A DNA stretch of 64,000 bases from Patescibacteria group bacterium (GCA_041674765.1 JBAYVE010000001.1:262177-326176), one strand, 5' to 3'. Shown: positions 26,242-50,833, counted from the stretch's first letter. Numbers and translations: made by a program. Notes: generated from the sequence alone by a model not told the origin.

Positions 26242-26760
26242 GAGGGATATTATTAATATACAGATTTCTTGCTTGCAAACAAATTTGGCTAGTCATAGAA
26301 TTAGCTTAAAACAAGGAGATCATTTGGATATCTATAAGATCGAATTCTTCAAAAAGAGGACTGTTATTCATCTATTAATTCCGCCTGCAATCAGGAAGAC
26401 AAGTCAATTGCCCGGTTTCGCCAAAACTTTGATTTTACAATTGCCAAGATTGAAATATCATCTTTGTGATAACGAGCAGCATCAATCATTTGCCGACGAA
26501 CTAGAGAATACCGAATTGGCTCATGCCTTTGAGCATACATTGATTGACTTGATAAGAGGGATAAAAAGGTCGAAGTAATTAAGGCGGTTACTTCTTGGGA
26601 TTGGTCTAAATATCCAAGAAATTCTTTTCAGATAGAAGTAGAATATTCAAAGAAAGACAATATGTTAAAATCGTTGATGAAAAGCGGAGAAGATAATTAA
26701 GGGATTAATATTGCAAACAACAAAGAAGCAAGGTCAGTCTTTGATTTTAAGAGATTACAT

Positions 26761-26804
26761 ATATTGTTGAATTAATTTGCGATCGCAAATTAATTCAACA
26801 ATAT
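26761..26804. repeat. 44 bp perfect palindrome (copy 1), centred on GCGATCGC
   Basis: ATATTGTTGAATTAATTTGCGATCGCAAATTAATTCAACAATAT reads identically on both strands. The 40 bp core is identical to the copy at 27332..27371. Confidence 0.9.
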
Positions 26805-26879: not shown

Positions 26880-27358
26880 TTATTTATCCCAGCCTCGATC
26901 TTCTTTGCGCATTTCTTCGGTTTCGGTCGGTCTATTATTGTCATCTTCGAGCCTAAAAGTGTTGCCGATCTCAGGAATTGAGGATTCGATGAAAACTATA
27001 TTCGAGACGGCTGTGACTCGATGGATTTGTCCTGGCTGCATAAAATAGCCTTTGTTCAACTCCATCGGAATCTCAATCGTCTGGCCTTTTTCATCAGACA
27101 AAGTTATTTTTGCTTCTCTTCAATCAGGCATAGAGTTTCGATCTTTTCATCATGATATTGCAAGCTTAAGCGTTTGCCGGCATTGACATGCAAAATCTTG
27201 CCGACGGCTGGTGCTTCGGGCGGGGTATAGACAATCTCAAAACCCCAAGGCTTTTCAACTCTTGTTTGAAAGGGAGTTGTGTAATAATGTTTAGGATTAA
27301 AATTGTTGCTCATTGTAATTTCACTTACTGCAATTGTTGAATTAATTTGCGATCGCAA
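26880..27358 (-). pseudogene. Cupin (mannose-6-phosphate-isomerase-like, cupin_2) gene disrupted by a -1 frameshift in an A5 homopolymer
   Basis: The upstream piece (...EKPWGFEIVYTPPEAPAVGKILHVNAGKRLSLQYHDEKIETLCLIEEKQK*) and the downstream piece (LSDEKGQTIEIPMELNKGYFMQPGQIHRVTAVSNIVFIESS...) together form a complete cupin barrel (PWGxE ... LSLQYHxxRxE ... G ... P.G..HR). Adding one A to the run at 27107..27111 restores a single ORF (...QKITLSDEKGQ...). The likely true start is ATG 27313 (MSNNFNPKHYY). Confidence 0.6.
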
Positions 27359-27372
27359 ATTAATTCAACAAT
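27331..27372. repeat. 42 bp perfect palindrome (copy 2)
   Basis: AATTGTTGAATTAATTTGCGATCGCAAATTAATTCAACAATT; lies 20-45 nt upstream of the cupin start on the minus strand. Confidence 0.9.
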
Positions 27373-30652: not shown

Positions 30653-31384
30653 ATGAGCGGTCATAGCAAATGGGCTACAACCAAGAGAAAAAAAGGCGCA
30701 ATCGACGCAAAGCGATCGAAGGTTTTTACGAAGGTGGCAAAATTAATCACAATTGCGGCTAGAGACGGTAAAAGTGGGGATCCGAATATGAATCCCTCGC
30801 TTCGAATTGCTGTCGACAACGCCAAGGCCGTGAGCATGCCCAAGGAAAACATTGAGAGAGCAATTAAGCGTGGTATTGGCGGCGGCGAGGGCGGGGCTGA
30901 TCTGGCTGAAATCACCTATGAAGCCTATGGGCCAAACGGCGCGGCTATTTTGATTGAGTGTTTGACTGATAACAAAAACCGGGCGCTTGGCGAGATCAAA
31001 GCCGTTTTAAGTAAGGCTGGCGGTTCTCTGACTAGTGCTGGCAGCGTTTCCTATCAATTTAAAAAAGTTGGCCAATTCATTATCGACGAGACAAAAAATG
31101 GTCTTAAAGGGGAAGATATGGAAATGGTGATTATCGACTCTGGAGCGGAAGATTTCGCGCGGGAAGATGATATCTATGTCGTTACTTGCGCATTTACCGA
31201 CCTAAATAATGTCAAACACAAGCTCGAAGAGTCGGGTGTAATTATCGAGAGCGCGGAAGCCGTCCAGACTCCAACTTCTTATGTAGATATTCCGGAAGAG
31301 AAAAAAGAATCTATCGAGCGTCTTCTGGAAAACTTAGACGATCTGGATGATGTGAATAATGTATACAGCAACGCAAATCTTTGA
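30653..31384 (+). CDS. yebC: YebC/PmpR family DNA-binding transcriptional regulator
   Basis: MSGHSKWATTKRKKGAIDAKRSKVFTKVAKLITIAARDGKSGDPNMNPSLRIAV is canonical. Confidence 0.95.
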   Translation: MSGHSKWATTKRKKGAIDAKRSKVFTKVAKLITIAARDGKSGDPNMNPSLRIAVDNAKAVSMPKENIERAIKRGIGGGEGGADLAEITYEAYGPNGAAILIECLTDNKNRALGEIKAVLSKAGGSLTSAGSVSYQFKKVGQFIIDETKNGLKGEDMEMVIIDSGAEDFAREDDIYVVTCAFTDLNNVKHKLEESGVIIESAEAVQTPTSYVDIPEEKKESIERLLENLDDLDDVNNVYSNANL

Positions 31385-31507: not shown

Positions 31508-31999
31508 ATGTCAATAAAAATATTAGGTATTGATCCGGGTACAGGTCTTATGGGCTGGGGATTAATCGAAAAAACCGGAGTGAAAATTATTCCTCTCAAA
31601 TACGGCTGTATCAGAACTCTTCCAAACAGTAATAAATTTGACCGACTTTTGCATATTTATCAATCCTTATCTGATATAATTGAGAAGTGCTGTCCTGATG
31701 AACTTTCTATCGAAGAGCTTTTTTTCTTCAAGAATCAAAAGACAGTAATTTCAGTAGCTGAGGCTCGCGGAGTTGCGGTGGCGGTAGCAATGAAATTTGG
31801 GCTTAAGGTTTTTGAGTACACTCCGCTCCAGGTGAAACAAGCGATCACGGGCTATGGGAGGGCCGATAAAAAGCAGATTCAAGAGATGGTAAGGATCACT
31901 TGTAATTTGAAGGAATGTCCGAAGCCGGATGATGCAGCCGACGCTTTGGCTATTGCCATCTGCCATGCACAAACTAATCAACAGCTAACTGTTGATTAG
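31508..31999 (+). CDS. ruvC: Crossover junction endodeoxyribonuclease RuvC
   Basis: ILGIDPGTGLMGWGLIE plus the later catalytic acidic residues (DAADALAIAICHA). Confidence 0.9.
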   Translation: MSIKILGIDPGTGLMGWGLIEKTGVKIIPLKYGCIRTLPNSNKFDRLLHIYQSLSDIIEKCCPDELSIEELFFFKNQKTVISVAEARGVAVAVAMKFGLKVFEYTPLQVKQAITGYGRADKKQIQEMVRITCNLKECPKPDDAADALAIAICHAQTNQQLTVD

Positions 32000-32092: not shown

Positions 32093-33112
32093 TTGCGATT
32101 TGTTATTTACTCCGAAGGAGGGTTTGTGCCAGAACTAAGACAAAATATTATCACCGGAGATTGGGTAGTTATTGCCCCAGAGCGGGCCAAGCGGCCTCAG
32201 GACTTTGTGATCCCAAAGGGTGTTCGGATCACAGATAAAACAAAATGTCCGTTCTGTGTTGATTCAGACGGATACAAAGCAAACAAGAAATTAATAGAGT
32301 TCGAAACCGATGAACTATATGTCGTTCCGAATAGATTTCCTGCTTTTATTGAAGATGAAGCGCAAAAATCAGTTAGGAGTTTTTATCCGGAAAAAGGATT
32401 CTATCGGGCCAAACCTTCGGTTGGGAGGCATGAGGTTGTTGTCATAAAAGATCATAACGAAAGATTAACTACGTTCAGTCGGCCGTTAATAGGCAAAATA
32501 TTAGAGGCGATAAGAGACAGATATCTGGCGCTGAAAAAGGATAATAGGATTTCCTCTATTATGCCGATATACAATCACGGTGCTGAGGGCGCTGCGTCGA
32601 TTGATCATCCGCATGCTCAAATTTTTGCCTCAGGTATTGTCGCCAATACAGTCGGGCGGGAAATTGATGGAGCAGAGGATTATTATGGGATAAATGGAGC
32701 TTGCGTTTACTGCGATATGATTAAGCATGAGGAAAAAGAAAAAGCCAGAATTGTTTACCAAAACGATCAATTCATTGCGATAAACTTTTTTGCCTCTAGA
32801 TTTCCATTTGAGACATGGGTTCTGCCCAAAAAACATGAGAGCCAATTTGAAGAAACCAGTAAAGAGAGCATGACAGAATTCGCCGATGCCTTACATAAAG
32901 TCTTCCATATGCTGGACAAGACCTTGCAGAATCCACCGTTAAATTTTTATATTCATACTTTGCCAACTATTCATGAGAATTCAGCTTCTTATCACTGGCA
33001 TCTGGAAATTACGCCAAGAGTCTCAAATTTTGGCGGGTTTGAATTAGGAAGTGAGGTAATCATAAATGTAATGTCTCCGGAGGAAGCCGCCGGATATCTA
33101 AAAGAGGGTTAA
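32093..33112 (+). CDS. GalT-branch HIT-family nucleotidyltransferase (galactose-1-phosphate uridylyltransferase-like)
   Basis: GDWVVIAPERAKRP N-terminus, Zn-ligand KCPFC, and the active-site IDHPHAQIFA (HxHxQ). Confidence 0.7.
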   Translation: MRFVIYSEGGFVPELRQNIITGDWVVIAPERAKRPQDFVIPKGVRITDKTKCPFCVDSDGYKANKKLIEFETDELYVVPNRFPAFIEDEAQKSVRSFYPEKGFYRAKPSVGRHEVVVIKDHNERLTTFSRPLIGKILEAIRDRYLALKKDNRISSIMPIYNHGAEGAASIDHPHAQIFASGIVANTVGREIDGAEDYYGINGACVYCDMIKHEEKEKARIVYQNDQFIAINFFASRFPFETWVLPKKHESQFEETSKESMTEFADALHKVFHMLDKTLQNPPLNFYIHTLPTIHENSASYHWHLEITPRVSNFGGFELGSEVIINVMSPEEAAGYLKEG

Positions 33113-33115
33113 AGC

Positions 33116-34663
33116 TTATCGGCTTGAGCCACTTTTTTTGAGATGTTGATTTATAACTTTTATCATTTTTTTATAATATTCTTCAGCCTCTTCAGCGCTC
33201 TGGCCAATGCAGATGGCACCAAAACGGCCGTATTCTTCTAGCATACCAGTAATATAGAGAAGGACACCTTGTTTTGTTTCTTTATTGAAGGAAATTTTGC
33301 TATTCTTGACCAAGTTGATCAGCTCCTCTGAGTTGAATTGCCGATATTTCTGATCCTCTATAAAATCCATGGCATAGTAATGGATTGGAGTCTTGCCGGA
33401 CATTAGATTTCCTGTCGTCGGATTATAGATGGCCCCCGTCAGGAAGAAAGCAGTTCTAAAAGGATGCGTGGTACCTCCTTTTCGGAGGTTAATTTCGATT
33501 GGCCAAACGATCGGATTTTTATGATTTTTGTCGTATACTACAACATAATCAATCGCAAAGTTACCAATAATGCCCTTCTGAGCTAGCACATTTGCGATTT
33601 TTTCGCCCTCTTTTATTATGAGTCTTCGGTGTGAAGGTATGGTCGGAAACTTGCAACCCAAAAATAATTGATTGTCCGGTCCGCCGAGAATTTGCTCATG
33701 AGTAGATACAATCCTGGCCTTTTTATCGGCGTTGATCAGAACCTGAGTGCTTGGGGAATATTTTATTTGTCCTGGGATATATAACTCAATAATTCCGCCA
33801 CTTTGGTTGAATTTTTTCACATAGTCGGCGTAAACCTCGTCCTCTTTTTGAAATATCATGTAATCTTTTAAATTAGCCTTGATGATTTTTTCTAGTTTTT
33901 GGGAGTCTGTCCTAACTGAATCGACATTGTGATCCTCAAGGAGGTGACCGATTCTTACGATGCAGTTGCCTTTGCCAGATGAAGAATAATTGCGTTTAAT
34001 CATCAATTTCTTGTAATTGGGGTATTTCTTGATTAGTTTGACGATGCTTGCGATCAAATCATTGAAATGCATGATGTCCTCAAAACCAGGGATTGTGTTT
34101 GCTTTGGCCAACCGGAACATTTTTCTGGCCCCGCTCTTAGTGCCGATAAAATCAAACTTCTGGCCAGATCCAAAAAGAGGCACCCCTAATTTTATAGCCA
34201 GTTCCCTTTCTGCTTCGGTGACATTGTATGTGCGTAGAACCGTTCTTTCAGGGTTATCGAGCTCATTTTTGATTTTTTCGATTATTCCCGGATTATCTAA
34301 AACTTTATGAACAAGCGCCATATTCTTTTTGTTATCAACTTCAATATGAACAAGTCTTTTTAGGCGTTCATTCATGTCTGCCTCGTCTTCTGAAATCAAC
34401 CCTACATAATAATTAAACAGATCTTTGTTGAAGCCTTTAGTAGTGACATAAACAATCTTGGTGTTTTTATATTTTAGGAGAAATAGAAAAAAGAACATTC
34501 TTTCCTCTGTATACTTAAGACCCTGAACCTTTGACAAGTCGACATACTTCGGGTGATTTAATCCCGGTACAACGACAAAAGTCCTTTCACCACGATAGCG
34601 ATAGTTCAATATTTTGGAATTCCGTTTTAGAATCTTTTGTAAGTTGGAAAAACTGTCTTGCAT
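33116..34663 (-). CDS. Large ATP-grasp family ligase (515 aa; PGM1-like / pre-ATP-grasp architecture)
   Basis: ATP-grasp C-terminal core NFAIDYVVVYDKNHKNPIVWPIEINLRKGGTTH (E-x-N-x-R Mg-binding motif) and upstream IIELYIPG. The long N-terminal region has no match to amino-acid/peptide ligases that I can recognise. Confidence 0.5.
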   Translation of the reverse strand: MQDSFSNLQKILKRNSKILNYRYRGERTFVVVPGLNHPKYVDLSKVQGLKYTEERMFFFLFLLKYKNTKIVYVTTKGFNKDLFNYYVGLISEDEADMNERLKRLVHIEVDNKKNMALVHKVLDNPGIIEKIKNELDNPERTVLRTYNVTEAERELAIKLGVPLFGSGQKFDFIGTKSGARKMFRLAKANTIPGFEDIMHFNDLIASIVKLIKKYPNYKKLMIKRNYSSSGKGNCIVRIGHLLEDHNVDSVRTDSQKLEKIIKANLKDYMIFQKEDEVYADYVKKFNQSGGIIELYIPGQIKYSPSTQVLINADKKARIVSTHEQILGGPDNQLFLGCKFPTIPSHRRLIIKEGEKIANVLAQKGIIGNFAIDYVVVYDKNHKNPIVWPIEINLRKGGTTHPFRTAFFLTGAIYNPTTGNLMSGKTPIHYYAMDFIEDQKYRQFNSEELINLVKNSKISFNKETKQGVLLYITGMLEEYGRFGAICIGQSAEEAEEYYKKMIKVINQHLKKSGSSR

Positions 34664-34797
34664 TTTATTATTATAGTAAATTATTGTTTTCTTAGCGATA
34701 GATTGTAAAGAGCTCAGAGTTCAAGTATATTATTTAGGAATTTATCTATAAACTTTTACCATAAAAAAGAACTTCTTACAAATTTTATCGGAGAAAA

Positions 34798-35787
34798 ATG
34801 TTATCAAACTTCAAGGGATCTAATAAAACACTGATTGAGGAAGCCTTGAGCTGTGGAATAAACTTAGTAGATACTATTGGTGAAAAAGTAGCTTTGCTGG
34901 AACATGACGGTCATTTTGAATACATTCATTCCCGTACCAGTTCCAAAACCGGGGCATTCGCTCATATAGTATGCAAAAATAAAGAATTATCCAGCGAGAT
35001 TCTATCAAGAGCTGGCATATCTTTACCGAAATATGCTTCTTTTCATAGTGGAGACTTCAAAGACGGGGTCAAATTTGCGAAGTCATTTCAATGGAAAGTA
35101 GTTATCAAACCGAGCGATTCGTCCGGAGGAGAAGGGATAACTACTTTGATCGAAAATGAAGATGATTTCGAAGCAGGCTGGAAGATTGCCGGCCCTGGCA
35201 AAATAATTATCGAAGAAAAATTTTTCGGATGTGAATATCGGATTTTTACTACCAGGGATAGATTCATCGCTGCTACTCTCAGAGATCCTGCAAATATTAT
35301 CGGCGATGGCGTTAACACTATCCAAGGATTAATAGATAAGAAAAATGCTGATCAGGGGAGATCACGAGAAGGCGAGATAGACAAGCCTCTGTATTTTATT
35401 AAAGTTGATGAAACAGCATTAAATTTTCTGAAAAAGAATAATTTGTCTACTGAATCAGTACCCGATAAAGATCAGAAGGTTTATCTGAGGGAGAACAGTA
35501 ACCTGTTGACGGGGGGAGACAGCATCGACGTTACGGACGAAGTTCATAGTTCGGTCAAGGAAATATGCTTGAAAGCAATAAAATCTATACCAGCCTTGCC
35601 ATATGCCGGCATAGATTTTATGACAAAGGATATTTCTGCCGTCCAGACTCAAGATAGTTACCGGATTTTGGAAATTAATTCTAACCCGGGCATAGAGATG
35701 CATCATCGACCGATGGTAGGAACGAGCCGTAATGTGGCTCGGGAAATTGTTGGAGTGATTTTTCCGGAGGTAAAGAATGAAAAATAA
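34798..35787 (+). CDS. RimK / cyanophycin-synthetase-N-terminal-like ATP-grasp ligase (paralog A)
   Basis: WKVVIKPSDSSGGEGIT (B-loop); IIGDGVNTIQGLIDKKNADQGR; NSNLLTGGDSIDVTDEVHSSVKEICLKAIKSIPALPYAGIDFMTKDIS...ILEINSNPG, which is very similar to the CphA N-domain/RimK core (NANLSTGG..DVTDEVHP...G.D....D...LEVN..PG). Confidence 0.7.
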   Translation: MLSNFKGSNKTLIEEALSCGINLVDTIGEKVALLEHDGHFEYIHSRTSSKTGAFAHIVCKNKELSSEILSRAGISLPKYASFHSGDFKDGVKFAKSFQWKVVIKPSDSSGGEGITTLIENEDDFEAGWKIAGPGKIIIEEKFFGCEYRIFTTRDRFIAATLRDPANIIGDGVNTIQGLIDKKNADQGRSREGEIDKPLYFIKVDETALNFLKKNNLSTESVPDKDQKVYLRENSNLLTGGDSIDVTDEVHSSVKEICLKAIKSIPALPYAGIDFMTKDISAVQTQDSYRILEINSNPGIEMHHRPMVGTSRNVAREIVGVIFPEVKNEK

Positions 35788-36760
35788 TATTGATTTATCA
35801 ACACAATTGATTGTTGAAGAAGCCGTCAGTCGGAATATTGCTGCTGTGCGTCTAGGAGAGAGAGACATCTTCGAACTAAAGTTGGGCAGTCATACTGATT
35901 ATGTCTGTGATCAGAGTTTGTCATCTTTTGGTCTCATAGCCAGGGCTTGTTGTGCAAATAAGGAAACCACTAAATACTGCTTAAATAGAGCCGGCATAGC
36001 CATAGCAGAAGGGGATATTTTTGCTAGCGGCCAGATTGAAGAAGCGCTCATATACGCAAAAGAAATTGGTTGGCCAGTTGTAATTAAGCCCAGTAACTCA
36101 AAATTTGGTAACTCAGTTTTTCTTGATATTAATTCGGCTGATGATTTCATTGATTCTTTCCAGAAATGCGTCAAAAATTTTGACAAGATAATTGTTGAAA
36201 AATATGTCGAAGGGACCGAATACCGGATTTTAGCAACCAGGGAGAAGGTAGCAGCTATCACAAAACGGGTACCAGCCAATGTAATCGGTGATGGTCTAAA
36301 GACATTGAGCGAATTGATTAAAGAAAAAAACAATGATCTAAGAAGAAAAGAGAAGAAGGGCCTGTTTCCAATAGTTATTGACGAGGTTGCAAAACGAAGC
36401 TTTGAGAGAAAAAGCATTCTTTTAGAAACGGTACCCGAAAAAGGAAAGCAAATCTTTTTGAGGGATAATTCAAATCTCTCTACCGGCGGCGATAGTATCG
36501 ATTTTACTGACATGGCTCATCCAAGTGTAAAGGAAATTGCTGTCAGGGTGATAAAATCCATTCCAGGACTACTTTATGGCGGCGTGGATTTCCTAACCAA
36601 GGATATCACCAAATTCCAGACAGATGACTCATATATTATCGTTGAAGTTAACTCAAGCCCGATGATTTCGATGCACCACTATCCTTACAAGGGCAAACCT
36701 AGAAATGTTGCCAAGGAAATCATCGATATCGCCTTTCCCGAAACCAAGGAGAAAAAATGA
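35777..36760 (+). CDS. RimK / cyanophycin-synthetase-N-terminal-like ATP-grasp ligase (paralog B)
   Basis: WPVVIKPSNSKFGNSV; VIGDGLKTLSELIKEKNNDLRR; NSNLSTGGDSIDFTDMAHPSVKEIAVRVIKSIPGLLYGGVDFLTKDIT...IVEVNSSP. It overlaps the upstream paralog by 11 nt and ruvA by 4 nt. Confidence 0.7.
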   Translation: MKNNIDLSTQLIVEEAVSRNIAAVRLGERDIFELKLGSHTDYVCDQSLSSFGLIARACCANKETTKYCLNRAGIAIAEGDIFASGQIEEALIYAKEIGWPVVIKPSNSKFGNSVFLDINSADDFIDSFQKCVKNFDKIIVEKYVEGTEYRILATREKVAAITKRVPANVIGDGLKTLSELIKEKNNDLRRKEKKGLFPIVIDEVAKRSFERKSILLETVPEKGKQIFLRDNSNLSTGGDSIDFTDMAHPSVKEIAVRVIKSIPGLLYGGVDFLTKDITKFQTDDSYIIVEVNSSPMISMHHYPYKGKPRNVAKEIIDIAFPETKEKK

Positions 36761-37323
36761 TTTCTTATCTCAAAGGGAGAGTTATTATCAGCAAAGTCGG
36801 CTTTGCAATTATCGAGACTGGTGGAGTCGGCTATGGTATTAACATCAATCAATCTGTCGTTTTGAAAAATAATGAGAGTGTTGAGCTCTTCATTCATGAA
36901 CATATACGGGAAGATAGCGATGATTTATATGGTTTTCCGTCATATGAAGAGTTGGATTTATTCCAAAAATTAATTTCCGTAAATGGGGTTGGTCCGAAAG
37001 CCGGCCTCAATATTATGTCACAAGCAAAACCGGGCCGAATTATTCAAGCAATTTCAAGAGATGACCTCAGCTTTTTTATCGCTATTTCGGGGATCGGTAA
37101 AAAGGTAGCCGCAAAAATCGTTCTTGATTTGAAATCAAAGTTATCAGGCGATAAAAACATTGGCGTTTTTTCAGAACTTGACGGAGCTGGCGATGTTATG
37201 GACGCTCTTGTTTCTCTCGGCTACAAGCAGACGGAGATTCAAAGTCTTATCATCAAAATTCCTGGCGAGGTAGTCTCGAGCGAAGATAAAGTGCGCTGGT
37301 GTCTCAAGAATCTAGGACGTTGA
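36757..37323 (+). CDS. ruvA: Holliday junction branch migration protein RuvA
   Basis: MISYLKGRV...GVGYGI start, HhH motifs (LISVNGVGPKAG; ISGIGKKVAAKIV), and a C-terminal RuvB-binding domain. Confidence 0.9.
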   Translation: MISYLKGRVIISKVGFAIIETGGVGYGININQSVVLKNNESVELFIHEHIREDSDDLYGFPSYEELDLFQKLISVNGVGPKAGLNIMSQAKPGRIIQAISRDDLSFFIAISGIGKKVAAKIVLDLKSKLSGDKNIGVFSELDGAGDVMDALVSLGYKQTEIQSLIIKIPGEVVSSEDKVRWCLKNLGR

Positions 37324-37398: not shown

Positions 37399-38418
37399 AT
37401 GGATCTTGAAATCGACAATTTAGAGACCGATCTTTTGGCGGGAACAGCGTTAAATGACGAAGACCTGAGACTAGATATTTCGTTGCGTCCGGCAAAATTT
37501 TCTGAGTATATCGGACAGCAACAAATAATCGAAAATCTCTTAATTTTTATTGAAGCAGCAAGAAAAAGAGGGGAGCCGGTTGAGCACCTCCTCTTCTATG
37601 GTCCTCCGGGATTAGGTAAAACTACACTTGCTAATATCATTTCTAATGAGATGGGAGTAAACTTCCGCCTGACCTCCGGGCCCGCTATCCAACGTTCGGG
37701 TGATCTGATCGCGTTGCTTACAAATCTTTCCGAGAGCGATATATTATTCATAGATGAAATTCACAGACTTAACCGGACAGTAGAAGAAGTCCTGTATTCG
37801 GCGATGGAGGATTTTGCGGTAGATCTGATTCTCGGTAAAGGCCCTTCGGCGAAGGCGATGAGAATCAATCTGCCAAAATTTACTCTTATCGGTGCGACTA
37901 CAAAGTTTGGGGCCTTATCCTCGCCGCTTCGAGACCGTTTTGGCTTCATTCATCGACTGGAGTTTTACAACGAGAAGGAGCTCTCTAAAATTATAAAGCG
38001 CTCTGCCGGCATTCTTAACATAGCGATTGATGATGGAGGAACGGCTGAAATTGCTAAAAGAGCAAGAAGAACTCCGAGAATTGCCAACAGAATCTTAAAG
38101 AGAGTTCGTGATTATGCCGAAGTTAAGCATAATGGGAAGATCGACGGTAAGATTGCAAGAGAAGCGATTGATAAATTGGACATCGATCATCTGGGACTTG
38201 ATAAAAACGATAGGGAATATCTAAATTGCATAATTAATAAATTTGAGGGCGGTCCTGTCGGCCTGGATACGATTAGTGCTGCTCTTTCGGAAGACAAAGA
38301 CACAATCGAAGATGTAATTGAGCCCTATTTACTTCAGCTTGGATTTATAAATCGTACGAACAGAGGTAGAATTGCGACAGTTCATGCCTATGAACACTTC
38401 AATAAAAAGGGACAATGA
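37399..38418 (+). CDS. ruvB: Holliday junction DNA helicase RuvB
   Basis: [12 protein letters not shown], Walker [12 protein letters not shown], Walker [11 protein letters not shown], and a winged-helix C-terminus. Confidence 0.95.
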
Positions 38419-47445: not shown

Positions 47446-48228
47446 ATGAGAGCGATTTGGTCAGGTTCTATCAGCTTTGGGCTGGTCAATATACCGGTTA
47501 AGCTTTATAGCGCCGTAGGCGATGAACGTCTTGATTTTGATATGCTTCACAGGGACGACCTTTCACCAATTCGTTTCGCACGTTTTTGTAGGGTCGAGGA
47601 AAAAGAGGTCCCATATGAAGAGATAGTTAAAGGGTTTGAATACGAGAAAGGAAGATATGTTGTTATTACCGATGAGGATTTTGAACGCGCTAATGTTAGA
47701 GTAACGCATGCAATTGTAATCCTAGATTTCGTTGATCAGAATGAGATAGAACATAAATATTTCGAAAAACCATATTATTTGGAACCGGACAAGGGTGCAG
47801 ACCGCTCTTATGCATTAATGAGGGAGGCGTTAAATCGATCTGGTAAAATTGGGATTGGTAAATTCGTACTAAGAAATCGTGAGCACTTAATTGGATTGCG
47901 TTCCGAAAAAGGCATTTTGGTTTTGGAGCAGCTACGCTTTGCTAGCCAAATCAGAAAAACAGCGGGGCTGAATAAGGCTGATAATATTGAATTAGACGAG
48001 AGAGAGGTCGAGATGGCTCTAGATCTGATTAACCGACTCTCTCGACCTTTCAAAATCGAAGAATACAAAGATACATATACGAATGAGTTGAAGAAGGTGA
48101 TAGCAGAAAGAATTTCCGGAAAAACTCCTTCAGCTGTTGGTACTCCTCCATTGCCGACACCTGTTCCAGATTTGATGGAGATGCTTAGAAAAAGTTTAGA
48201 AGAACAAAAAGGGAAAAGCAGAACTTAG
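47446..48228 (+). CDS. ku: NHEJ DNA end-binding protein Ku
   Basis: MRAIWSGSISFGLVNIPVKLYSAV is the canonical bacterial Ku N-terminus. Confidence 0.85.
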   Translation: MRAIWSGSISFGLVNIPVKLYSAVGDERLDFDMLHRDDLSPIRFARFCRVEEKEVPYEEIVKGFEYEKGRYVVITDEDFERANVRVTHAIVILDFVDQNEIEHKYFEKPYYLEPDKGADRSYALMREALNRSGKIGIGKFVLRNREHLIGLRSEKGILVLEQLRFASQIRKTAGLNKADNIELDEREVEMALDLINRLSRPFKIEEYKDTYTNELKKVIAERISGKTPSAVGTPPLPTPVPDLMEMLRKSLEEQKGKSRT

Positions 48229-48267
48229 ATGCTTAGGACGAGAGGAATGAAATAGAATAAGGAGTCT

Positions 48268-49830
48268 ATGCCTTTCAAAGAATATGAGAAAAAACGAAAG
48301 TTTAGCTATACCCCGGAGCCAAAAGGCAATATAAGACCGAAAAAAGGCCAACTGACTTTTGTGGTACAGAAACACGATGCTTCTCATCTTCATTATGATT
48401 TAAGGCTTGAACTAAATGGAGTCTTAAAGAGCTGGGCCATACCCAAAGGGCCGACTATAAAGCCTGCTGGCAGACGTCTGGCGATGATGGTTGAAGATCA
48501 TCCCTATAATTATAAGGACTTCGAAGGCATAATCCCGGAAGGCAACTACGGTGCTGGCACTGTGATGATCTGGGATAAGGGACAATATCATGCCACATCA
48601 ACCGCTGATTCCACGGAAAGCGAAAATCAACTAAACGAAGGTCTAAAGAAGGGTCATTTGAGCTTTGTTTTGGAGGGCGAAAAGCTCAAAGGTGAATTTG
48701 CGCTGGTTCGAATGAAGAATGCTAGAGAACCGAATGCCTGGCTCCTAATAAAAGCGGATGATTCAGGATCGAGCGAAGAAGATATTTTGAAAAAAAATAA
48801 GTCAGTTCTCTCTGGCAAAACGATCGAGGAAATTGAAGGCCAGTCAGAGGACTTTTGGAATTCTCGATTAGGAGGAATTATTATCTCTGAGGCTCCTAAG
48901 GAAAAAATGCCAGACAGAGTTAGACCCATGCTCACAACATTTGTAGACTCGCCATTCAACGGCAAGGACTGGCATTTTGAGATAAAATGGGATGGCTATC
49001 GTATTATCGCATTTAGGGATCACGATAGTTTTCGGCTACAATCGCGAAATTTCAAATCATTAAATCAAAAATTCAAAGAAATTGTTACTGACTTACAATT
49101 ATTTCCACACCAGATCATCTTGGATGGAGAAGCTGTTGTCTTAAATCAAGAAGGTATGCCTGATTTTCAACTTCTTCAGGACTATGATAAAAGCCATAAC
49201 GGGCGCTTAGTTTTTTATGTTTTCGATCTTCTTTATCTGGAGGGACGTACCCTAGAAAGATGCCCATTGTCTATGAGGAGGGAAGTGCTGGAAAAGATTA
49301 TGCCCAAATGTCCATATATTAAAATAAGCGAGGCAATCATCGAGAAGGGCGAAGGTCTTTTCGATGCAATCAAACAAAAGGGACTAGAGGGAATGATCGC
49401 TAAAAAACTAGAAAGTCCATACCGACAAGGTGTTAGATCCGGAGATTGGTTAAAAATTAAAACTCATTTAGAGCAGGAGGTGGTGATCGGCGGGTACTCT
49501 GCGCCCGCCGGAAGCCGGATGTACTTAGGTTCATTAATTGTGGGAGTTTACGATCAAAAAAAACTAATTTATGTCGGCAGTGTTGGAACGGGGTTCGGCA
49601 ATATGGTTTTGAAGGAGTTGAAGAAAATGCTGGACAAAGAGATTATAAAGAGTTCCCCTTTCGCAAACATTAGTCATATAAAAGGGGCTACTTGGGTAAA
49701 CCCAAAGTATGTAGCAGAGATTAAATTTCAGGAGTGGACCAGAGATAATCTTCTTCGCCAACCGGTCTTCCTGGGTCTCAGGGAAGATAAGGATCCAGGA
49801 GAAGTAACCAAAGAAATTCCTAGTAAATAA
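48268..49830 (+). CDS. ligD: DNA ligase D (3'-phosphoesterase domain + ATP-dependent ligase domain)
   Basis: PE domain FVVQKHDASHLHYDLRLELNGVLKSWAIPKGPT; ligase adenylation motif I FEIKWDGYRII (KxDG) and downstream ligase motifs. Confidence 0.8.
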   Translation: MPFKEYEKKRKFSYTPEPKGNIRPKKGQLTFVVQKHDASHLHYDLRLELNGVLKSWAIPKGPTIKPAGRRLAMMVEDHPYNYKDFEGIIPEGNYGAGTVMIWDKGQYHATSTADSTESENQLNEGLKKGHLSFVLEGEKLKGEFALVRMKNAREPNAWLLIKADDSGSSEEDILKKNKSVLSGKTIEEIEGQSEDFWNSRLGGIIISEAPKEKMPDRVRPMLTTFVDSPFNGKDWHFEIKWDGYRIIAFRDHDSFRLQSRNFKSLNQKFKEIVTDLQLFPHQIILDGEAVVLNQEGMPDFQLLQDYDKSHNGRLVFYVFDLLYLEGRTLERCPLSMRREVLEKIMPKCPYIKISEAIIEKGEGLFDAIKQKGLEGMIAKKLESPYRQGVRSGDWLKIKTHLEQEVVIGGYSAPAGSRMYLGSLIVGVYDQKKLIYVGSVGTGFGNMVLKELKKMLDKEIIKSSPFANISHIKGATWVNPKYVAEIKFQEWTRDNLLRQPVFLGLREDKDPGEVTKEIPSK

Positions 49831-49897
49831 AGGTCAATATAAATAATAGTTATAAGGTGTTAAGAAATAAACATCCAAGCTAAATAGGATATCATAA

Positions 49898-50833
49898 ATG
49901 TCCAATAACAGTTTAATAGAACAACAAGGGAATCAGGAATTAGAAATTGAGGGCAAGATTTTAAAATTGACTAATCTTGGTAAGGTTTACTGGCCGGAGG
50001 AAGGTTTTACCAAGGGAGAACTTTTAAATTACTACTTACATGCTTCAGAGTTTATCCTGCCTTATCTTAGAGATCGACCCGAATCTCTGCATCGTTATCC
50101 TAATGGGATTAAGGGCAAAAATTTTTATCAAAAAAATGTCGACCACCAGTTTCCGGATTGGATAAAGACCGCCGATATTTATTCTGAGGGTGGAGACAAA
50201 ATCATAACCTATATGATCATCAATGATCTTCCCTCTCTCCTTTATGCTGTCAATCTGGGTTGTATCGATTTGAATCCTTGGAGCTCACGGCTTGGAACTT
50301 TGGATAATCCCGATTATCTTTTGGTTGATCTAGACCCTGAAACAATTCCTTTTGATTATGTGATCAGTACGGCTTTAGCGGTTCAAAAGATTTTGGATGA
50401 TTTGAAAATTGTTAGCTATCCGAAAACCTCGGGAGCTACCGGTATACATATTTATATCCCTATGCAAGCGAAATATTCGTATGAACAAGTAAGACAGTTC
50501 GCAGAGTTGCTTGTTGGCCTAGTCCATCAGGAAGTACCAGAATACACCAGCTTAGTTAGAACTGTGAAAGAGCGGCGGGGCAAAGTTTATCTTGATTGGT
50601 TACAAAACTCCTGGGGACAAACTTTAGCGGCTCCATACTGTGTTCGACCGAAGCAAGGTGCCACGGTCTCAACGCCGCTCGAGTGGAATGAAGTTCAAAA
50701 AGGATTGAGTCCTGGTGATTTTACAATCAAGAATGCAATGAGTAGATTCAAAAATAAGGGTGATATTTTTATGGGAGTCCTTAACTCAGGGGTTATAATA
50801 GAGGAAGTTCTATCTAAATTAAAACATGTCTAA
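49898..50833 (+). CDS. LigD polymerase/primase domain protein (NHEJ PolDom, archaeo-eukaryotic primase fold)
   Basis: KVYWPEEGFTKGELLNYY, LLVDLDP and YPKTSGATGIHIYIP match the LigD-Pol pattern. Confidence 0.75.
   Translation: MSNNSLIEQQGNQELEIEGKILKLTNLGKVYWPEEGFTKGELLNYYLHASEFILPYLRDRPESLHRYPNGIKGKNFYQKNVDHQFPDWIKTADIYSEGGDKIITYMIINDLPSLLYAVNLGCIDLNPWSSRLGTLDNPDYLLVDLDPETIPFDYVISTALAVQKILDDLKIVSYPKTSGATGIHIYIPMQAKYSYEQVRQFAELLVGLVHQEVPEYTSLVRTVKERRGKVYLDWLQNSWGQTLAAPYCVRPKQGATVSTPLEWNEVQKGLSPGDFTIKNAMSRFKNKGDIFMGVLNSGVIIEEVLSKLKHV

Follow-up and report, generated by a model that had tools for sequence, protein, structure and literature searches.

Several described systems bear on the four-gene block reported here. 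In the cyanophycin synthetase CphA1, an ATP-grasp G domain handles the (beta-Asp-Arg) primer and the incoming Asp through residues E215, H267, S396, G456 and R458; in TeCphA1, E215 binds the primer Arg side chain, R458 binds the alpha-carboxylate of the incoming Asp, and residues of the site also stabilise the acyl-phosphate (PMC9427784). The Rlo system of Pseudomonas aeruginosa combines a retropepsin (RloA), an inactive transglutaminase with seven transmembrane segments (7TM; RloB) and an ATP-grasp protein (RloC); its retropepsins cleave Glu-rich peptides, and mutants show envelope, osmotic and morphology defects (PMC11957051). The block itself lies between ruvC and ruvA in a Patescibacteria group bacterium (GCA_041674765.1, JBAYVE010000001.1:262177-326176), within a stretch of 64,000 nucleotides (nt) that was analysed as a whole and is called the window; the stretch comes from a 365-kb contig of an uncultured member of Patescibacteria. 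Open reading frames (ORFs) and Pfam matches confirm the content that an earlier note on this DNA had proposed, namely one HIT nucleotidyltransferase and three ATP-grasp ligases. We favour, with moderate confidence, the reading that the block is a conserved module for stepwise non-ribosomal peptide ligation, possibly coupled to the supply of nucleoside diphosphate (NDP)-hexose. Its features and anchors, with protein lengths in amino acids (aa), are:

30653-31384: yebC, upstream of ruvC (Pfam YebC)
31508..31999, + strand: ruvC, upstream anchor of the block (PF02075, E 6.5e-49)
32126..33112, + strand: HIT/GalT-class nucleotidyltransferase; probable start GTG 32126, longest ORF from TTG 32093
33116..34663, - strand: PGM1/BesA-type ATP-grasp carboxylate-amine ligase, 515 aa (PF24923 75 bits, PGM1_C 29.6 bits)
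34664..34797: AT-rich divergent intergenic region of 134 nt between the PGM1-like gene and ligase A
34798..35787, + strand: ATP-grasp ligase A, CphA-G/GshF-type, 329 aa, the more divergent paralogue (TIGR02068 249 bits)
35777..36760, + strand: ATP-grasp ligase B, CphA-G/GshF-type, 327 aa (TIGR02068 294 bits)
36757-37323, + strand: ruvA, downstream anchor (RuvA_N, HHH_5 and RuvA_C matches)
37399-38418, + strand: ruvB, downstream anchor (RuvB_N, AAA and WHD_RuvB in the public gene call)

The tandem ligases A and B share 43% identity from end to end (E 3e-89) and, on sequence grounds, are a distinct standalone clade of the ATP-grasp family that includes the CphA G domain, GshF and Ngg. Against the cyanophycin synthetase profile TIGR02068 (cutoff 850), A reaches 249 bits over profile positions 160-476 and B 294 bits, the matched range being ~156-477; against NF002688 (GshF, C-terminal ATP-grasp; cutoff 425) the scores are 216 and 240 bits, and against TIGR03103 (Ngg; cutoff 569) 141 and 148 bits. 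The RimK profile TIGR00768 (cutoff 143.4) gives 41-50 bits for the two, and their Pfam matches to RimK and ATP-grasp_3 are only weak. By sequence, the solved structures nearest to B are 7WAC (TeCphA1; E 3.5e-50, ~33-35% identity) and 3LN7 (GshF; E 1.7e-49). The AlphaFold model of B, with a predicted local distance difference test score (pLDDT) of 93.3, fits the substrate-bound TeCphA1 G domain with a template modelling (TM) score of 0.89 and a root-mean-square deviation of 2.5 A; Foldseek returns TM 0.85 for GshF and 0.82 for CphA2, LysX and RimK reach only 0.52-0.56, and the RimK entries 5ZCT/7QYS (TM 0.53-0.56, E ~1e-10) rank behind every CphA and GshF entry. A rough neighbour-joining tree without support values puts the Patescibacteria standalone enzymes in a clade apart from CphA1 and GshF, within which A, B and the other copies from what we call type II loci (described below) cluster together. 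A single-protein scan of genome contigs yielded, among the matches listed, only true CphA1 and GshF from other phyla.

The earlier note had put the paralogues on the branch of RimK and cyanophycin synthetase, and it is the cyanophycin side of that placement that survives. RimK itself was rejected: both proteins fall below the TIGR00768 cutoff, the RimK fold is without the G-omega insertion, and the TM scores are low. LdmS, the L-Asp--L-Met ligase of S. aureus (PMC9486568), was considered as a characterised relative and dropped, not being among the PDB sequence matches of B. Two adjacent standalone CphA-G/GshF-like ATP-grasp genes, encoding 353 and 398 aa, occur in the cultured Staphylococcaceae Jeotgalicoccus marinus DSM 19772 (L010 9809-12097); their products branch apart from the Patescibacteria clade and may offer a tractable comparator.

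Are both paralogues likely to be active? We aligned 109 G-domain-like sequences from the fetched loci and took residue roles from TeCphA1 (PMC9427784), whose numbering is used for them. The catalytic set (K220, K261, E300, R309, R323, N394, D431, E450, N452) shows no variation in any class aligned, A and B included; the features that mark an ATP-grasp enzyme of this kind (K220, K261, E300, R309, D431, E450 and N452 together with the G-omega insertion/large loop) are all present, and invariant in 41 family members. Because this set is intact, both A and B look catalytically competent. The substrate-contacting positions cleanly divide the classes. At 215/267/396/456/458, A has I, G, L, G, E and B has A, F, S, M, S, and the 19 full-length CphA1 compared have D/E (one A) at 215, H/Q at 267 and S, G and R, respectively, at 396, 456 and 458. 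The resulting signatures are:

True CphA1: D/E at 215; P-loop xxGN[HQ]G[KR]G; G at 456 and R at 458
GshF: L at 215; P-loop KSTN[FY]GLG; M or A at 456 and M or H at 458
Ligase A: I at 215 (I57); P-loop SDSSGGEG; G296 and E298 at 456 and 458; L235 at the S396 position
Ligase B: A at 215 (A57); P-loop SNSKFGNS; M296 and S298 at 456 and 458

Since the residues with which CphA1 binds its primer and Asp are replaced in A and B, the two should not make cyanophycin. Ligase specificity probably also differs between lineages, because the substrate positions vary among the Patescibacteria orthologues.

The third ligase, encoded on the opposite strand, scores 75.4 bits against PF24923 (ATP-grasp_IQCH; cutoff 27) and 29.6 bits against PGM1_C (cutoff 22.5), and a sequence search aligns its residues 43-498 with the BesA structure 8YI6 (E 1.4e-21). 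Its AlphaFold model (pLDDT 92.7) finds BesA (8YI6) as the top fold match (TM 0.76/0.85, E 3e-30), with 8YND and the PGM1 structures 3WVQ/3WVR (TM 0.65-0.78 for these two) among the further top matches. The two domain matches and the whole fold, N-terminal domain included, place the protein in the PGM1/BesA type, of which it is, as modelled, a full-length member with the normal N-terminal domain. The size, strand and ATP-grasp nature given in the earlier note were thus right, and the N-terminal region that it had left unassigned is part of the PGM1/BesA fold. The protein is no BesA equivalog (NF042917 100.9 bits, cutoff 750), and neither Pfam nor the public gene call places bes genes nearby. 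Its place is instead in a large family, spread over many phyla, of 'PGM1-related' ligases of ~520 aa, in which the motif EINLRKGG is invariant and of which only two members, to our knowledge, have been characterised.

The HIT protein matches PF01087 and PF02744, the two GalT half-domains, as well as PF01230, and its translation carries CPFC (the CxxC zinc motif) and HPHAQ (the HPH nucleophile motif), in agreement with the GalT branch to which it had been assigned at the outset. It is borderline for TIGR00209 (galT_1; 102.5 bits, cutoff 102.1) and reaches 128 of the 448 bits required by NF008724 (PRK11720). The best solved structure is 1Z84 (Arabidopsis At5g18200, an ADP-glucose phosphorylase; E 1e-50, full length), with E. 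coli GalT at ~1e-19. No galK or galE appeared among the scanned ORFs of the window, the rest of the genome being outside the data. The end of the gene at 33112 is as reported before; its start is probably GTG 32126, 33 nt later than the 32093 given earlier, yielding 328 aa, because a strong Shine-Dalgarno sequence, GAAGGAGGG, lies just upstream at 32114-32122 and the public gene call also starts there. Homologues with 62-74% identity, named galactose-1-phosphate uridylyltransferase at NCBI, fill more than 120 clusters including Berkelbacteria, compared with 45-65% identity for the ligases, and several come from long contigs, of 156-687 kb, whose lengths are missing from the list of PGM1-like matches. 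The gene is probably a common sugar-nucleotide enzyme of the phylum that only sometimes adjoins the ligases.

Relatives show how stable the arrangement is. Locus L023, whose ligase is 52% identical to B, has the identical order yebC, ruvC, GalT-like, PGM1-like (on the - strand), two ligases, ruvA, ruvB, queH; L021 has the order of the window plus a GT4 glycosyltransferase before ruvA, and L013, at the same layout, has one ligase followed by two GT4 genes and PGM/PMM. In L110 and L033 the unit stands at this same site, between ruvC and ruvA, but is inverted and has no GalT-like gene; there the PGM1-like gene comes first in an apparent operon that runs through a ManC-type nucleoside triphosphate (NTP)-transferase, PGM/PMM, an NAD-epimerase/dehydratase and a ROK kinase into ruvA, and L110 further has a RimK-type ligase beside two CphA-G-like genes. 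In L031, the PGM1-like and CphA-G-like pair lies away from ruvC, accompanied by a RimK-type ligase, a MATCAP-like carboxypeptidase and another NTP-transferase. Two genes of these relatives deserve separate mention. The GT4 gene of L021 (11083-12342, +) also matches PF20706, 'GT4 in conflict systems' (E 2e-16), more weakly than it does the general GT4 models. The 498-aa MATCAP (tubulin tyrosine carboxypeptidase) domain protein of L031 (10983-12479, +) directly follows the RimK-type and CphA-G-like ligases, and an add-and-remove cycle for C-terminal residues is possible there.

The divergent PGM1-like/CphA-G-like pair is kept in every locus of this kind, which we term type II, including L031 with its pair away from ruvC. 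Fourteen values for the length of the longest contig recur in the match lists of both the CphA-G-like and the Patescibacteria PGM1-like proteins, which suggests, from equal lengths and not from direct observation, that the pair occurs together in at least 14 lineages. What adjoins the PGM1-like gene differs in ancestry: four loci have a GalT-like gene there, and L033, L110 and L031 an NTP-transferase of the ManC type. An NDP-hexose-forming enzyme of some kind is therefore found beside it in every type II variant, and GT4 or PGM/PMM genes recur. Because non-homologous NDP-hexose enzymes, GalT-like or ManC-type, always adjoin the PGM1-like gene, a functional link between them and the ligases is plausible.

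More distant Patescibacteria carry at the same place a second kind of cluster, type I, with the order yebC, ruvC, 7TM_transglut, ATPgrasp_ST (often with a RimB-like domain), one or more RimK-type ligases, a CphA-G-like ligase, and then PBP1A and SMC. The families ATPgrasp_ST and 7TM_transglut were reportedly defined by Iyer et al. in 2009. Counting as architectures the distinct loci with at least 5 kb on both sides of the gene, ruvC lies no more than 6 kb from the CphA-G-like gene in 10 of 15 (the script counted 11/16; L110 and L111 are the same locus). The block is thus lineage-conserved in one Patescibacteria clade, at a long-standing variable site between yebC-ruvC and ruvA-ruvB. The earlier description of an unusual island does not hold, given the same order in L013, L021 and L023, its inversion in L110 and L033, and ATP-grasp genes beside ruvC in many Patescibacteria; that yebC-ruvC-ruvA-ruvB is 'normally contiguous' was likewise put too strongly, as E. 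coli transcribes ruvC and ruvAB as separate units. Of the three findings that the earlier note had named as marks of an inherited arrangement, two were made, the conserved gene order and the common GalT-like gene, and the third was not: the paralogues are no ordinary RimK. Its suggestion of an undescribed product is supported, and the searchable literature yielded no description of ruvC-linked ATP-grasp clusters in candidate phyla radiation (CPR) bacteria, of the standalone CphA-G-like clade or of the PGM1-related family.

What, then, might the module make? Its components would be the PGM1/BesA-type ligase, divergent from tandem A and B, and the GalT-class HIT enzyme, which would interconvert NDP-hexose and hexose-1-phosphate. 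Each ligase would use ATP to phosphorylate a carboxylate, giving an acyl-phosphate with which an amine then reacts. The first amide, between a carboxylate and the amino group of an amino acid or peptide, would come from the PGM1/BesA-type enzyme, after which one amino acid each would be attached to the C-terminal alpha-carboxylate by A and by B, much as the ATP-grasp part of GshF joins gamma-Glu-Cys and Gly and the CphA G domain adds Asp. What results would be a short peptide of non-ribosomal origin, or an amino-acid conjugate, other than cyanophycin; it may be attached to, or produced together with, a molecule that contains hexose and is probably associated with the envelope. What the data establish is family membership and conservation; the order of ligation and the identity of the product are inferred from the chemistry of the families, and a tie to sugar is considered possible because relatives flank the module with genes for GT4, PGM/PMM, a pyrophosphorylase of the ManC type, an epimerase and a ROK kinase. 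A part in DNA repair is improbable, the link to ruv reflecting tight gene packing in a conserved syntenic block, and nothing that we found indicates a role in Holliday-junction processing.

In favour of a peptide-ligation module stand the family assignments and folds, the retained catalytic residues, the separate clade, the order kept in L013/L021/L023, a guanine-cytosine (GC) content that is not anomalous, the pair kept in type II loci and the adjoining NDP-hexose enzymes. Several observations weigh against it. Neither ligase clade has a member with a described substrate or product, and the chemistry may not be conserved, given that relatives differ strongly at the substrate-contacting residues even where the positions are orthologous. 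Beyond Patescibacteria, genes for the PGM1-related ligase stand alone, in an uninformative context. The GalT-like gene is far more conserved and widespread than the ligases and also occurs on contigs without a PGM1-like match, so its place beside them may reflect synteny rather than function; it is, moreover, convergent with the PGM1-like gene, hence there is no co-transcription of the two. Finally, no glycosyltransferase appeared among the larger ORFs scanned in the window.

Other explanations were considered, among them that there is no joint pathway at all and that a sugar-nucleotide enzyme and independent ligases are four unrelated neighbours held together by synteny in a small, packed genome. 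The wide distribution and stronger conservation of the GalT-like gene, the varying contents of the block among relatives and its position in a conserved run of core housekeeping genes all fit such an explanation, which we nevertheless judge unlikely: the PGM1-like/CphA-G-like pair stays together through inversion (L110, L033) and relocation (L031), A and B overlap by 11 nt, and an NDP-hexose enzyme always adjoins. Alternatively, the standalone G-like ligases might polymerise an amino acid on a primer, as parts of a split synthase for poly-Asp, poly-Glu or a cyanophycin-like chain that the other ligases prime or decorate. B is indeed closest, by sequence and fold, to the polymerising G domains of CphA1 and CphA2, sister clusters pair the same ligase with RimK-type poly-Glu-type ligases, a RimB-like retropepsin and a MATCAP-like carboxypeptidase in a manner reminiscent of polymer or tail trimming, and 5.5 kb upstream there is an 84-aa ORF similar to the beginning of the CphA N domain. 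This ORF is, however, partial and missing from relatives that have the cluster, a tblastn search with full-length CphA1 found no remnant of a Mur-ligase-like M domain in the window, and at the substrate site E215 has become I/A, H267 G/F and R458 E/S. With GshF and Ngg, which add single residues, as equally close relatives, polymer synthesis appears doubtful.

The same peptidases and RimK-type genes could point to modification of a protein tail, in which the ligases would add amino acids to the C-terminus of one protein, as RimK does on ribosomal protein S6 and TTL on tubulin, and a peptidase encoded elsewhere would reverse the reaction. Members of the CphA-G family do lengthen C-terminal carboxylates, and RimK-type ligases, a RimB-like protease domain or a MATCAP-like carboxypeptidase stand beside the orthologous ligase in L019, L025, L031 and L110. 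In the window, however, the block is without peptidase or RimK-type gene and no candidate target is evident; tail modification would also leave unexplained the recurrent NDP-hexose genes and the PGM1/BesA-type ligase, whose relatives, where characterised, use the amino groups of small molecules or of peptides, and we consider it quite unlikely. A graspetide cluster, that is, a ribosomally synthesised and post-translationally modified peptide pathway of the microviridin MdnB/MdnC type acting on a small precursor, had been raised in the earlier note and is effectively refuted. Tandem ATP-grasp genes are all that speaks for it, graspetide clusters being present in CPR bacteria (PMC8939145). In NCBIfam and Pfam, A and B match CphA, GshF and Ngg and not the graspetide ligase families, the top 50 fold matches of B include no graspetide ligase, and no precursor was found, as the note itself had reported: the ORFs of both intergenic gaps are only 20-54 aa long and of low complexity, none has a Thr/Ser/Asp/Glu-rich core, and 34664..34797 holds no credible small ORF. 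As a more far-reaching and tentative variant of the peptide-ligation module, Patescibacteria could make a small non-ribosomal peptide or glycopeptide by a multi-ATP-grasp pathway, in which a BesA-like, possibly gamma-glutamyl-type, first amide would be followed by GshF-like extension to give a glutathione-like peptide or an envelope-glycan decoration; such a pathway would have kept its place beside yebC-ruvC from an early point of the radiation onwards, with type I (Rlo-like) and type II (PGM1-like/NDP-hexose) as interchangeable versions.

The local layout fits an inherited arrangement. The block lies in a run of core genes (dnaK-grpE-comEC-yebC-ruvC ... ruvAB-queH-queA-tsaE), and its GC content of 0.35-0.41 is like that of the flanks (0.39-0.43), so it is not a compositionally foreign island and shows no sign of recent foreign origin; horizontal acquisition was rejected, there being no compositional signal in GC and synteny being conserved. 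The PGM1-like gene runs towards the HIT gene and away from ligase A; the overlaps, 11 nt between A and B and 4 nt between B and ruvA, are exactly as first described. The claim that the last ligase is joined to the ruv operon is borne out as far as the overlap goes, and the promoter and terminator scan, whose counts are at chance frequency (promoter-like sites: 25 found, 21 +/- 4.7 expected; terminator-like sites: 5 found, 6.8 expected), gave no terminator-like site between B and ruvA; co-transcription of the two is likely. The interval 34664..34797, with promoter-like hexamers on both strands at the chance frequency of the region, is a probable, still putative, bidirectional promoter region. 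Among the larger ORFs scanned in the window there was no further ATP-grasp gene, glycosyltransferase or Rlo component.

Elsewhere in the window, the 84-aa ORF mentioned above lies between dnaK and grpE (26324-26578, +, or from TTG 26201) and matches PF18921 (E 5e-9) and CphA1 residues 3-95 (E 3e-7). We rejected it as a relic of a degraded cyanophycin synthetase: no M-domain or other remnants accompany it, and it was not found in the checked relatives carrying the cluster. A perfect 40-nt palindrome, ATTGTTGAATTAATTTGCGATCGCAAATTAATTCAACAAT, occurs at 26763-26802 and again 570 nt away at 27333-27372, and nowhere else in the window. The two copies flank a segment with a broken cupin gene (26880-27358, -) that resembles the C-terminal domain of mannose-6-phosphate isomerase (PF01050, E 2.5e-4); a TAA stop and a +1 frameshift split it into ORFs of 84 and 73 aa, and it is likely a pseudogene or an assembly error. 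At 47446-50833 (+), this small Patescibacteria genome has a complete set for non-homologous end joining, with consecutive genes for Ku (PF02735), for a LigD-type ATP-dependent DNA ligase that carries a 3'-phosphoesterase domain, and for the LigD primase-polymerase as a protein of its own.

The genomes of Patescibacteria are very small and encode few biosynthetic pathways, and that three or four ATP-consuming ligases are kept at one site across many lineages suggests that the product matters to them. The tandem ligases represent a third, uncharacterised branch beside the CphA G domain and GshF. Identifying the product would assign a function to hundreds of genes now 'hypothetical' or mis-annotated as 'cyanophycin synthetase' or 'glutamate ligase', and could reveal cell-envelope or small-peptide chemistry specific to these symbionts. 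The finding points to no new principle of DNA repair and to no new enzyme fold; with enzymes from known superfamilies and an inherited arrangement, the system is not of a new kind.

Finally, we would like to place the block beside the systems it most resembles. The HIT protein shares with At5g18200 (1Z84) and class I GalT the two-lobed HIT fold, the CxxC zinc motif and the HPH motif; it is only borderline for galT_1 and far below the PRK11720 cutoff, with no adjacent galK or galE in the window. With PGM1, the pheganomycin peptide ligase, and BesA, the L-propargylglycine--L-glutamate ligase, the 515-aa protein has the whole fold in common, whereas identity to BesA is ~21% and the gene is without the context of a natural-product cluster. 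Type I clusters come closer to Rlo, as they place the CphA-G-like ligase after yebC-ruvC together with 7TM_transglut, ATPgrasp_ST/RimB-like genes, RimK-type ligases and PBP1A; the block of the window has no Rlo hallmarks (tblastn gave no match to 7TM_transglut or ATPgrasp_ST/RimB-like genes in the window), and only the shared ligase family and the genomic site tie the two. The G domains of CphA1 and CphA2 are the best sequence and fold match of B, with the G-omega insertion and large loop (LRxNSNLSTGG) present and every catalytic residue for ATP, Mg and acyl-phosphate kept in both A and B. In CphA1, dimerisation of the G core brings a residue of one subunit into the active site of its partner; a heterodimer of A and B, if it forms, would account for the tandem, overlapping genes. 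Both ligases nevertheless stand apart from CphA1 as standalone proteins of ~330 aa without an N or M domain, matching only profile positions 156-477 and lacking the N-G-M architecture, and they fall in a separate clade of the tree. GshF and Ngg are equally close by sequence. A and B carry no fused GshA or GNAT domain and score under the family cutoffs (216/240 bits for GshF). At the P-loop position where GshF has Phe/Tyr, B likewise has Phe; the rest of the GshF signature (L57, KSTN[FY]GLG, M/A296, M/H298) is not shared. What GshF and Ngg do offer is a precedent for the chemistry, the addition of one amino acid onto the C-terminal carboxylate of a small N-blocked peptide, as we propose for A and B.

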